Part shown: one piece after another, positions 55,603 through 58,362 of the stretch
Numbering within the stretch: position 1 is the first letter of the stretch
How the letters are laid out: each line of letters starts with the position of its first letter
Source: Staphylococcus phage LY01
Sequence record: OR836606.1
Direction: 5' to 3' (one strand)
Length of the DNA: 64,000 nucleotides
Translations under genes and position numbers: made by a program
The notes under the pieces: model-generated
Told to the model about the DNA's origin: nothing
Seen by the model: only the letters and a program-made list of their open reading frames with translations
Databases searched by the model: none

Positions 55603-58362
55603 ACAAACACCATCTGATAATTTACCAATTGATATACCTTTACCATTTCTCTTTTGAGGTTTACTAACTTCATTTTTAACTTTCTTAATCTTATTTTGTC
55701 TAGTAATAATACACATGAAATCTTCATCTTTAATTAGTAATTCTTTATTATCATTTTTAAAATCAATATCAGAATACTTAGTTAATCTAGATGGTTTAAG
55801 TGTATTTTTATCTTTCTTAATTTCTTTCATTTCATTAATAATAAGGTCATTCAATTTACTTACATCTTTCATATATATCATTTCTTCATTAACAATCTTT
55901 TCTTTTTCTTTCTTTTCATCAATCAATTTATTAATTTCAAGATTATTAATTGTGTATAATTTCATTTCAGCTACATAAGAAGCTTGTGCATGAGATATAC
56001 CGAATTTCTTACTAACTACATCAATAATATCATCTTTACCTTTACCAGATTTAACTATTTTAATTAATTCATCGATATTCTTAGAATCTAATACAACTAA
56101 TAGACCTTCAATAATATGAATACGACTTCTTAGATCTTTAATTTTAAATGATTTAAAACGTTTTACGGTAGATTGTCTAAAAGAAATCCATCTATCAATA
56201 ATACCTAATAAATTAGTTTCTACTAGTTTATTATTATCTACTAATTTAACGTCAAAATTAATTCTAGAAGTAATTGTTTTAACTTTATACAATTGATTTA
56301 ATGCTAAATCTAAGTCAGAAGATTTTGTATATTGAAGAATTAAACGAACATCCCCATTTTGAGTTCCATCACTAATATTTTTAAGACCATCTAATTGTTC
56401 TTCTTTATGTGCTTCTCTTATTGCTTCTTTAACTCTAGTTAACGTAACGTTATAAGGAATTTCTTTAATTGTAAGAGTCATTTTACTCTCATCTTTTTCG
56501 ACTACAGATCTTAATAACATAGAACCTTTACCAGTACGATAACATTTCTCTAAATCATCACAGAACGCTTCTCCACCATAAGGGAATTGTGGTTTAAAGT
56601 TATTATCTTTAATAAGTGTCTTTAATTTCTTATTAGGATTTTTAATTCTATCAATAGTAATATTAATTACATCTTCAGTAGAATGTGGTGGTAAATCAGA
56701 TCTGTGCCCTCCACCACCGATGCCAAATGAACCATTAACTAATACATAGGGTAATTTAGAAGGTAATACTAAAGGCTCTAACATTGACCCATCGAAATTC
56801 TTAACCATATTAACTGCATTGTCATTAATGTTATCCAACAAGTTTCTTTCTGAGAATTTATTTAATCTCATTTCTGTATTATGATGAATAAAACCTTCAG
56901 ACATAAATGAATGATCATCCGTATCAACTTTAATAGAATAAACTACTTCTTTTTCATCTAATTCTTTAATACTTTCTACTTGTTCAAAATAAGTATAGTT
57001 ATCTAAGTATTTAGAGATAAATAACATTAAATGATCTCTATCTTCAATTTCAATACCGTATTCTTCTTTAAGTAAACTAAAGTTATTTAAGAAATTCTTT
57101 CTAGTATTGAATAGTTCTGGATATAAATAAGAAGTCATTTTTCTTTCATTCAATACTTCATCTAAATAAGGAATAATTTGATATGGATTATTACTTTCTA
57201 AATTTATATACATATCAATAACCGCATCAATTTTATCTTTAAATAAATCATCATCTTTAATTAAGTGTTTAGATAAATTCTTAAGTGAATGAATATCTTG
57301 AATTTGTAATCTATAATCAATATCACTAAATAATGATACTACAGAATAGATACCAAATTGAGATAATAATGTAGCTATTTCTTGCAAGAATCTTTTACTA
57401 TGACTTTCAATAACTAAACCAACGTTATCTACAATAAATCCATCTTGTTTAAATAACTCTAACAAGAATTCTCTCTTATACCCTAAACAAGCTTCTAATA
57501 TTTTATTAGGAAGATTTTTTCCACTTTCAATATCTTTCATTAATACACTATATTCAGGATCTAAAGTCCTATTAAAATAATTATTAGAAAGGATTTCTCC
57601 CCATTTTTTAAAACTTCCTTTTTCATTTTCATTAAGATTTTTACTTCTAAAATCTTTAAGATCATTCTTAATCATAGTTCTGTTGATTAAGTAATCTCCT
57701 TCTTTAATTTCATCCATTGTTTTCCATTTAAAATCCAATCCTTTTGTTGGATGCTTAATTACAGTTAATAAAGGATGATTTGGAGTAGCTTTAATAGTTT
57801 TACCTGCATTAGTATTTAATTCCATTACATTATGTTTACCTGAATTAAAGAATTTAATAGCTTTAACTGGTTTACGTCTAAAGTCCATAACAACTTTATT
57901 AATTACATTATCGCTATTTAATTTACTATGAGGTACTATATCTTTAATTCTTACAAGTTCTCCATTGTTCATATCGATTATATGTTCTCCAGTTAAACAA
58001 TAACGTGAAGCAGCTGCTGAAGCTCCTGTAATAGAACCAAATGCACCATGTCCTTCAATTAATGGTTGGTTCATAGAAAATGGTGTAACCATATTAACTG
58101 CAGAATCATAAATACCATCATTACTATGTGGGTGTAATATAGTTGTGTCACCAGCAATTCTGGCTGATTTGGCAAATTTCTTATCAGATCTATAACCATT
58201 TTTATACATAATATAAAGTATTTTTCTTTGAATAGGTTTCAAACCATCTCTAATATCCGGTATTTGACGATTAGTATTAATTTCATTAAAATAAATCATC
58301 ATATTATCATGAACTATTTCTTTTAAATCTTTATTAAAAACTTCTGCCATTATCTTTTTCAT
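55603..58362 (-). CDS. gyrA: type II topoisomerase A subunit (GyrA/ParC-like), exon 1, containing an intein
   Basis: IPDIRDGLKPIQRKILY...KSARIAGD..HPH...SAV..MV.PFS.......G.G.FGSI.G.SAAA.RY is strongly GyrA N-terminal. GyrA box PQKRNGKG near the end. The catalytic Tyr is followed by Cys (intein start). Confidence 0.85.
56878..57999 (-). other. intein (374 aa, LAGLIDADG homing-endonuclease type) after the catalytic tyrosine
   Basis: Junctions ...AAASRY|CLTGEHIID ... SFMSEGFIHHN|TEMRL. Blocks A (CLTGE), B (TPNHPLLT), C (LLELFKQDGFI) and E (LLSQFGI), then terminal HN + Thr. Confidence 0.85.

Follow-up and report, generated by a model that had tools for sequence, protein, structure and literature searches.

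Staphylococcus phage LY01 encodes a gyrA gene with two inserts on the minus strand of a 64,000-nucleotide (nt) stretch of sequence record OR836606.1 (hereafter the window, to which all unqualified positions refer). We put the probability at about 0.9 that the first insert, encoded at positions 56878-57999, is a class-1 intein of the gyrA-a site family, with a decaying endonuclease and with an IStron downstream in the same gene. This intein has been reported before, in GenBank annotations and in two papers; new here is only the IStron-like insertion, itself of a known kind, in this allele of gyrA.

The intein and its insertion site

The first insert corresponds to residues 122-495 of the first gyrA open reading frame (ORF), exactly positions 57999 to 56878 of the minus strand; translated on the plus strand, the same positions are riddled with stop codons. 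Judging from the annotation of relatives, MarsHill among them, the true start of gyrA is likely the ATG at 58350 (MAEVF...). The Pfam DNA_topoisoIV match of this ORF is split by an Intein_splicing domain, and the order across the two junctions is ...GSITGASAAASRY/CLTGEH...EGFIHHN/TEMRLNKF, where slashes here and below mark junctions. The G+C content of the insert is 24.1%, compared with 26.6% for the exteins of exon 1. When the insert was scanned alone, Pfam Intein_splicing matched with E=4.3e-20, and the best relative of solved structure was the Mycobacterium xenopi (Mxe) GyrA intein 1AM2 (phmmer, E=1.7e-25), which aligns in two stretches, insert residues 2-114 and 329-374, that are the two halves of the Hint domain. 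The N-terminal half aligns residue for residue with residues 3-115 of the Mxe GyrA intein. The class-1 catalytic set is complete, comprising Cys1, Thr72/Asn74/His75, His373, Asn374 and Thr+1. An AlphaFold2 (AF2) model built from 18 sequences has a predicted local distance difference test (pLDDT) score of 84.5 and a predicted template modelling (pTM) score of 0.88, with both Hint halves above a pLDDT of 90; Cys1 and H75 are invariant in the alignment behind the model. Its best fold matches in the PDB are the intein endonucleases PI-PfuI, TliVMA, PhoVMA, PI-TkoII and PI-SceI and the Mxe GyrA intein, and Foldseek matched the Mxe GyrA, RecA and DnaB inteins with a probability of 1.00.

The exteins locate the insertion site precisely. 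With the insert removed, they align without a gap over the junction to Staphylococcus aureus ParC 2INR (...AAMRYTEAKL; E=7.5e-77) and GyrA 6QX2 (...AAAMRYTEARM), and the insert therefore lies exactly between the DNA-cleaving tyrosine and the next residue, reading AAASRY/C...HN/TEMRL in the window compared with AAAMRY-TEARM in S. aureus GyrA. The 809-residue GyrA of Listeria jumbo phage LPJP1 aligns collinearly on either side of the insert, and precisely the 374 residues are missing from it (...QMRY/TQMRLNKFSE...); an intein-less gyrA junction is of the type ...GCATCAAGATAT/ACAGAAATG....

An earlier reading of the DNA letters (the original prediction) had proposed a 374-residue intein with blocks A and B, inserted directly after the catalytic tyrosine of a GyrA-type subunit, ending in His-Asn followed by Thr, and akin to the mycobacterial GyrA inteins. 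Pfam, the homology to 1AM2 and the extein alignment agree on this placement, and the residues that define the blocks and ends (Cys1, T72/H75, H373-N374 and Thr+1) are all found. Both computational checks that it suggested gave the expected outcome: the intein profile matched, and the extein-only alignment to GyrA and ParC runs gap-free across RY/TE at an E-value of about 1e-75. It had also stated that it would fail if the insert were a normal domain of intein-free homologues, which is not borne out by LPJP1 GyrA and S. aureus GyrA and ParC, all of which lack the insert.

The catalytic tyrosine is the most common insertion site of GyrA inteins. When 1.84 billion representative proteins were scanned with HMMER, 356 matched at E<=1e-3, and we checked the junctions of 153 proteins, namely the best 150 of these 356 and three from a word-indexed protein search. 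At least 96 of these proteins have both an [AS][AS]x[RK]Y/C and an H[N]/TE junction; they are of the GyrA/ParC type, and the site mostly lies 115-140 residues into a chain of 1,000-1,300 residues. Among the matches listed, inteins at this site range from 150 to 505 residues, with a mode around 405-440, and end-to-end alignments of the window intein with the long gyrA-a inteins give 22-34% identity. Presumably the mycobacterial inteins occupy this same GyrA site, as the homology to 1AM2 suggests. The closest relative outside the phage clade among the matches listed, a metagenomic protein of 1,173 residues (P0004), is 68% identical in its exteins and only 34% identical in its same-site intein; from the sequences, either the intein has diverged much faster than the host gene or it has been replaced.

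Within the clade of Staphylococcus jumbo phages, the GyrA precursor is 95-96% identical to those of S6, PALS_2, DC4, MarsHill and Madawaska and about 82% identical to those of PB50, SA1, Machias and AH12; the DNA of the locus shares 94.5% identity with that of S6 and Madawaska. All nine deposited relatives carry the intein. It is annotated in the GenBank records of MarsHill, Madawaska, Machias and PB50, with an 'intein' mat_peptide inside gyrA of 1,122 nt in MarsHill and 1,119 nt in Machias. Korn et al. described it in gp228, between Y117 and T492, as bounded by Cys and His-Asn and containing a LAGLIDADG domain, and reported two introns and no intein in AR9 gp044 (bioRxiv 10.1101/2020.12.14.422802). 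The same gyrA intein is reported in the paper on DC4 (PMC10638138). The novelty that the original prediction had implied is thus lost to an orthologue that was annotated in GenBank and described in both publications.

The LAGLIDADG region of the intein

We aligned 66 long gyrA-a inteins and projected them onto the window sequence. The family consensus runs from LAxLLGALVSEG (block C) over about 50 residues to SxxKxIPxxIL (block D), FLxxLFEGDGSV (block E) and LLLxFGIxS. The window has SFKKWGEILSNN as block C, in which the acidic residue and the Gly are lost (SNN for SEG), and after it the sequence is shorter than the family by 37, 8 and 5 residues on average; KNLPNKIL (block D) and FLLELFKQD186G (block E) are retained. 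The remnant is made up of block C at residues 124-141 (KKWGEILSNN), a disordered stretch at 143-159, block D at K161-N-L-P, block E at LFKQD186G and a half-domain at 172-246. In the AF2 model, residues 124-141 form a lone helix, residues 143-159 have a pLDDT below 50, and residues 172-246 form one alpha-beta-beta-alpha-beta-beta-alpha unit. Scanned alone, the insert gives a single Pfam LAGLIDADG_3 match (residues 174-219, E=1.1e-5, 26 bits with a cut-off of 22.5). Comparable deletions occur in the short family members P0004, P0006, P0007, P0044 and P0075, and the P0004 intein also lacks the second LAGLIDADG motif. The double LAGLIDADG endonuclease of the original prediction has to be given up, since both motifs that it quoted lie within one half-domain: LLELFKQDGFI is the second motif of the family, and LLSQFGI is the conserved LLxFGI helix. 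Where a double-motif enzyme has two of each, we found one motif with an acidic residue and one half-domain.

From the sequence comparison and the model, the endonuclease is probably a decaying remnant and would have lost its activity. The homing-cycle model predicts that an endonuclease decays where no empty alleles remain, and decay fits an intein that is fixed in all known members of the clade, because no empty sites are left there to invade. Two observations weigh against a simple loss of function. The ratio of nonsynonymous to synonymous substitution rates (dN/dS; Nei-Gojobori) in the endonuclease region is 0.17-0.27, so that the region is still constrained, and the block D Lys and the block E Asp are kept in all six phage sequences compared. 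Given this constraint and these two conserved residues, residual activity, or a structural or other role, is possible. The same facts, with a dN/dS of about 0.2-0.27 that is not neutral, conservation of the Lys and the Asp across the clade, and a LAGLIDADG_3 score above the Pfam cut-off for the intein alone, could be taken further, to an intein that is still fully mobile and whose LAGLIDADG protein cuts the intein-less gyrA of co-infecting phages, either as a homodimer or as a single-half-domain nickase. We find this doubtful, since the acidic residue of the first motif is missing, about 50 residues with the first beta-sheet DNA-binding platform are gone, the AF2 model has one half-domain only and a disordered stretch, the clade offers no known target alleles, and P0004, the closest outside relative among the matches listed, has lost motif 2 too. 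Effectively refuted is the idea, in favour of which we found nothing, that the 374 residues are a lineage-specific domain or that the gene is a decaying pseudogene. All class-1 residues and the Hint fold are present, and there are homologues that lack exactly this segment. As to a pseudogene, the gyrA coding sequence has no frameshifts or stops when compared with its relatives, and the exteins are under strong purifying selection, with a dN/dS of 0.05-0.14 (Nei-Gojobori) among the intein-bearing relatives; therefore, the gene functions with the intein in place. Together, the intact catalytic residues and the purifying selection on the exteins suggest that the intein undergoes protein splicing.

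The 2,000-nt insertion downstream

Compared with MarsHill, in which gyrA is one ORF of 1,184 residues, the window has extra DNA between 55608 and 53609, in the linker that connects the breakage-reunion and coiled-coil domains with the C-terminal beta-pinwheel. This insertion starts 1,270 nt past the last intein codon and is missing from all nine deposited relatives. The original prediction had the gene split about 1.3 kb downstream of the intein, in good agreement with 1,270 nt of C-extein coding sequence followed by a 2,000-nt insertion. Removing the 2,000 nt, such that GGT is joined to GAT, yields an uninterrupted protein of 1,188 residues that is collinear with its relatives (...SDG/DIPLN..., as in MarsHill); the exon 2 ORF (52796-53617) holds the Pfam DNA_gyraseA_C domain. 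The filled junctions are GATGGTG/TTTGTTAACAG... and ...GAGATTTTGTTAACTG/ATATACCG, and the empty site of MarsHill is GATGGTGATATACCG. One copy of the TG shared by the two junctions is counted within the 2,000 nt, and the target is not duplicated. A 9-nt sequence, TTTGTTAAC, at both ends of the insertion was considered as a target-site duplication and rejected, as the empty site of MarsHill lacks it.

The sequence features support identification of the 2-kb element as an IS607-type IStron without tnpA, composed of a putative group I intron and tnpB. Scanning a 581-nt stretch alone gave a full-length match to the Rfam group I intron family RF00028 (29.9 bits, E=9.9e-6) that holds the conserved core AAUUGC...GCAGC...GUUCAACGACUA...GAUAUAGUCU. 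Over 347 nt, the core module shares 67% identity with the sequence directly upstream of the IS607 element of LPJP1, and shorter matches to it occur in many unrelated phages, in unannotated sequence in or beside genes with an annotation as RNA polymerase beta subunit or terminase large subunit. The tnpB gene probably starts at the ATG at 55029, giving a protein of 401 residues; its RuvC D/E/D motifs are intact, and it is 88.8% identical to a Machias 'transposase' encoded at another locus. Nucleotides 479-509 of the element are complementary to nucleotides 1959-1989, and the resulting stem stops 9-11 nt short of the 3' junction. In its anatomy, the element supports the IStron label of the original prediction, with a putative group I core (at a sub-threshold score), an intact tnpB and an AU-rich closing stem. 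We found no tnpA ORF within the 2,000-nt insertion. Its absence is not disqualifying, because the published IStrons include some that carry ORF B alone (PMC4227781).

The closest described elements are the group B (IS607-type) IStrons of Tourasse et al., which have a group IA2 intron, a long AU-rich inverted-repeat stem and U as their first base, are inserted after a site that ends in G, carry the same dinucleotide at their 3' end, splice after G rather than U, and have members in Clostridium botulinum phages (PMC4227781). By analogy with these, we prefer the boundaries exon ...GGTG/UUUGUUAAC...GUUAACUG/AUAUACC, with a terminal G and with a placement that is ambiguous within 2 nt. RNAfold pairs the exon GGUG and U(+1) with ACACC just upstream of P2, a possible P1.

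Several results weigh against a splicing intron. The RF00028 score is below the gathering score of 50, and neither a scan of the whole window at the gathering threshold nor a scan of 53500-55700 at E<=1 gave a group I match. We sought a P1 of the canonical kind, in which a U-G wobble marks the splice site, and found none compatible with frame restoration and a terminal G; indeed, wherever the 2,000 nt are placed, a U preceding the 5' splice site and a G at the end of the element never occur together. Our preferred boundaries follow the non-canonical splicing after G that is reported for group B IStrons. As to the score, the whole window (1-64000) contains no RNA family at the Rfam gathering threshold, though the clade is described as intron-rich, and the authors of the DC4 paper found no introns with Rfam either (PMC10638138); the sequences indicate that the group I introns of these AT-rich phages fall under the RF00028 threshold.

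An alternative is that the 2-kb element is a plain, non-splicing insertion of the IS607/IS605 type, which leaves a truncated 546-residue GyrA, with or without a separate C-terminal domain, or inactivates the gene. The sub-threshold Rfam match and a 5' splice site without the canonical U-G pair favour it, as does Machias, in which a nearly identical tnpB and right end exist without the intron module. An N-terminal fragment of GyrA together with GyrB keeps cleavage and relaxation activity, and a split gene need not be lethal, which is a further point for this alternative. We nevertheless consider it unlikely. The RF00028 match is full-length, includes the conserved core sequences and has an E-value of 1e-5; the core is homologous to the region upstream of TnpA(Ser) and TnpB in LPJP1 and to sequences within split essential genes of many phages; the stem of about 29 bp puts the 3' junction beside the core; excision of exactly 2,000 nt restores both the frame and the sequence of the relatives; and the TTG of the exon 2 ORF has no obvious Shine-Dalgarno sequence in front of it. 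Hence, we favour an IStron-like element that would be removed by RNA splicing.

Table. Features of the gyrA locus in the window.
Feature	Positions	Strand	Description
gyrA exon 1 ORF	58362..55600	-	920 aa
gyrA N-extein	58000..58362	-	121 aa from first ATG; ends at catalytic Tyr (...AAASRY)
Class-1 intein, gyrA-a allele (probable)	56878..57999	-	374 aa, 43.9 kDa calculated; Cys1 ... His373-Asn374, then Thr+1
N-terminal splicing (Hint) part, aa 1-110	57670..57999	-	Block A (Cys1), block B (T72-P-N74-H75); AF2 pLDDT >90
Remnant LAGLIDADG region, aa 111-334 (probable)	56998..57669	-	Degenerate block C helix, disordered stretch, blocks D and E, one half-domain, helical linker
C-terminal splicing part, aa 335-374	56878..56997	-	Block F (VYSIKVDTDDHSF), block G (FIHHN)
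gyrA C-extein, exon 1 part (Thr+1 ... SDG)	55608..56877	-	Rest of breakage-reunion and coiled-coil domains; Pfam DNA_topoisoIV E=4e-92
IStron-like insertion, 2,000 nt	53608..55607	-	TTTGTTAAC...GTTAACTG if 5' splice site follows G55608; placement ambiguous by TG at both junctions
Putative group I intron catalytic core	55141..55532	-	P2-P9, P7 GACUAU/AUAGUC; Rfam RF00028
Closing stem, 5' strand, AU-rich	55099..55129	-	About 29-31 bp; pairs with 53619-53649, loops out tnpB; cofold -43.2 kcal/mol
tnpB (RNA-guided nuclease, IS605/IS607 family)	53824..55044	-	Pfam OrfB_IS605, Cas12f1-like_TNB, HTH_OrfB_IS605
Right-end, omegaRNA-like conserved region	53610..53823	-	Four copies, mean identity 79%; last ~30 nt are the 3' strand of the closing stem
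gyrA exon 2, C-terminal beta-pinwheel domain (DIPLNIF...KHS, stop)	52796..53607	-	Pfam DNA_gyraseA_C E=4e-25; collinear with MarsHill gp228

Parts of the element recur in the window and in related phages. In Machias (L003 2499-3940; 272222-273663), an intergenic tnpB and right end are 87% identical at the nucleotide level and lack the group I module, which makes up the first ~560 nt; the intron and the IS parts can therefore be found apart from each other in this clade. In LPJP1 (L008 1627-3713; 221126-223212, minus strand), a related group I core lies directly upstream of a serine-recombinase TnpA (Resolvase domain) and TnpB. From its sequence, this locus looks like a complete IS607-type IStron, annotated just as 'hypothetical protein' and 'IS607 family transposase'; the LPJP1 record matches the intron core at four places. 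The window itself has two solo, intergenic copies of the right end, at 2429-2611 and 4624-4802 (both plus strand), which are 85-91% identical to the roughly 190-nt region that follows tnpB both in the gyrA element and in Machias. The right ends of the gyrA element, of Machias and of the two solo copies share ...TATGAGATTTT and then diverge (ACAGCTGG, GTAACTGG and GTTAACTG). Judging from these sequences, the solo copies may be orphan omegaRNA/right-end modules or miniature elements.

A second tnpB (62341-63483, minus strand; 380 residues) is 37% identical to the tnpB in gyrA; the counterpart of its site in MarsHill (window 62159-63497, MarsHill L001 2246-2564) is about 320 bp with gp221. A free-standing ORF of 120 residues (60168-60530, minus strand), about 2 kb upstream of gyrA, has the position of a gene that both MarsHill (gp224) and Machias annotate as 'HNH homing endonuclease'. 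With it, the surroundings of the topoisomerase genes are richer still in selfish elements.

Proposed maturation and comparison with known systems

It is reasonable to infer, as the original prediction did, that the gene needs both protein and RNA splicing. Transcription of gyrA would run through the IStron, and group I self-splicing would join the gyrA exons. Translation would then give a precursor of about 1,184-1,188 residues in which the intein parts the tyrosine from the threonine, and the active site would presumably be non-functional, with no DNA cleavage. An N-S acyl shift at Cys1, transesterification to Thr+1, cyclisation of Asn374 aided by His373 and an O-N shift would free the 43.9-kDa intein, restore ...AAASRY-TEMRL... 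and yield a GyrA of approximately 810 residues. If the intron were not spliced, exon 1 would give, after protein splicing, a 546-residue N-terminal GyrA without the C-terminal domain, the size given in the original prediction.

For CboIStron, the reported mechanism combines transposition by TnpA(Ser), cleavage of the empty site by TnpB/omegaRNA, which retains the element, and competition between omegaRNA and splicing (bioRxiv 10.1101/2023.11.20.567912). By analogy, a mechanism of this type may apply to the window element, and the candidate omegaRNA guide would match ATATACCGTTAAAT.... A far more speculative and very unlikely extension is that the two self-splicing steps, that of the IStron being opposed by its own omegaRNA and TnpB, form a topoisomerase switch in which one or both are conditional (temperature, redox), or, more modestly, that TnpB and its guide drive homing into the gyrA of co-infecting phages of the S6 or MarsHill type. 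Such a switch, if real, could be part of the reason why these phages reportedly fail to grow at 37 °C.

As a further copy of a published phage intein, the intein is not in itself a new finding. Its half-deleted yet constrained endonuclease would capture an intermediate stage in the reduction of a full intein to a mini-intein, within phages among which the intein is fixed. A tnpB-carrying, IS607-type IStron stacked in the same essential gene would extend IStrons to Staphylococcus jumbo phages, and the gyrA alleles with and without it are a natural pair for the study of TnpB-driven homing between phages.

The nearest known relatives of the intein are those of the MarsHill clade (MarsHill, Madawaska, Machias, DC4, PALS_2, S6, PB50, SA1 and AH12), which are orthologous and occupy the same gene and site. 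They have 374 residues, as in the window, or 373 in Machias. The inteins of MarsHill and S6 share 91-92% of their amino acids with the window intein, and those of Machias, AH12 and SA1 share 64-75%. The inteins differ by point changes only; the genes differ in that the 2-kb IStron-like insertion of the window gyrA is in none of the nine deposited genomes. Full-length gyrA-a inteins of public genomes and metagenomes (about 405-440 residues; for example P0008, P0017 and P0029) share the site and blocks A, B, D, E, F and G with the window intein; however, they have both motifs (LLGALVSEG and LFEGDG) and two half-domains, whereas the window intein is short by about 50 residues and lacks the first acidic residue. 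The Mxe GyrA mini-intein (1AM2, 4OZ6) is presumably likewise inserted right after the catalytic tyrosine, has T72, N74 and H75 at the same numbering and ends in HN/T. It differs in being a 198-residue mini-intein without an endonuclease, whereas the window intein keeps about 220 residues of a degenerate LAGLIDADG region, and in its host, an actinobacterial chromosome rather than a phage of a low-GC Gram-positive bacterium.

For the second insert, the comparison is with the group B IStrons BcISt1 of Bacillus cereus and CbISt of Clostridium botulinum and its phage c-st, and with CboIStron. The window element differs from these in having no tnpA, in a TG rather than GG junction and in its host gene, the gyrA of a Staphylococcus jumbo phage. 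It resembles them in its putative 5' group I intron, its internal tnpB and the long AU-rich stem around the IS part, as well as in its location in a coding gene without target duplication, its U start after G and the single dinucleotide at both junctions.

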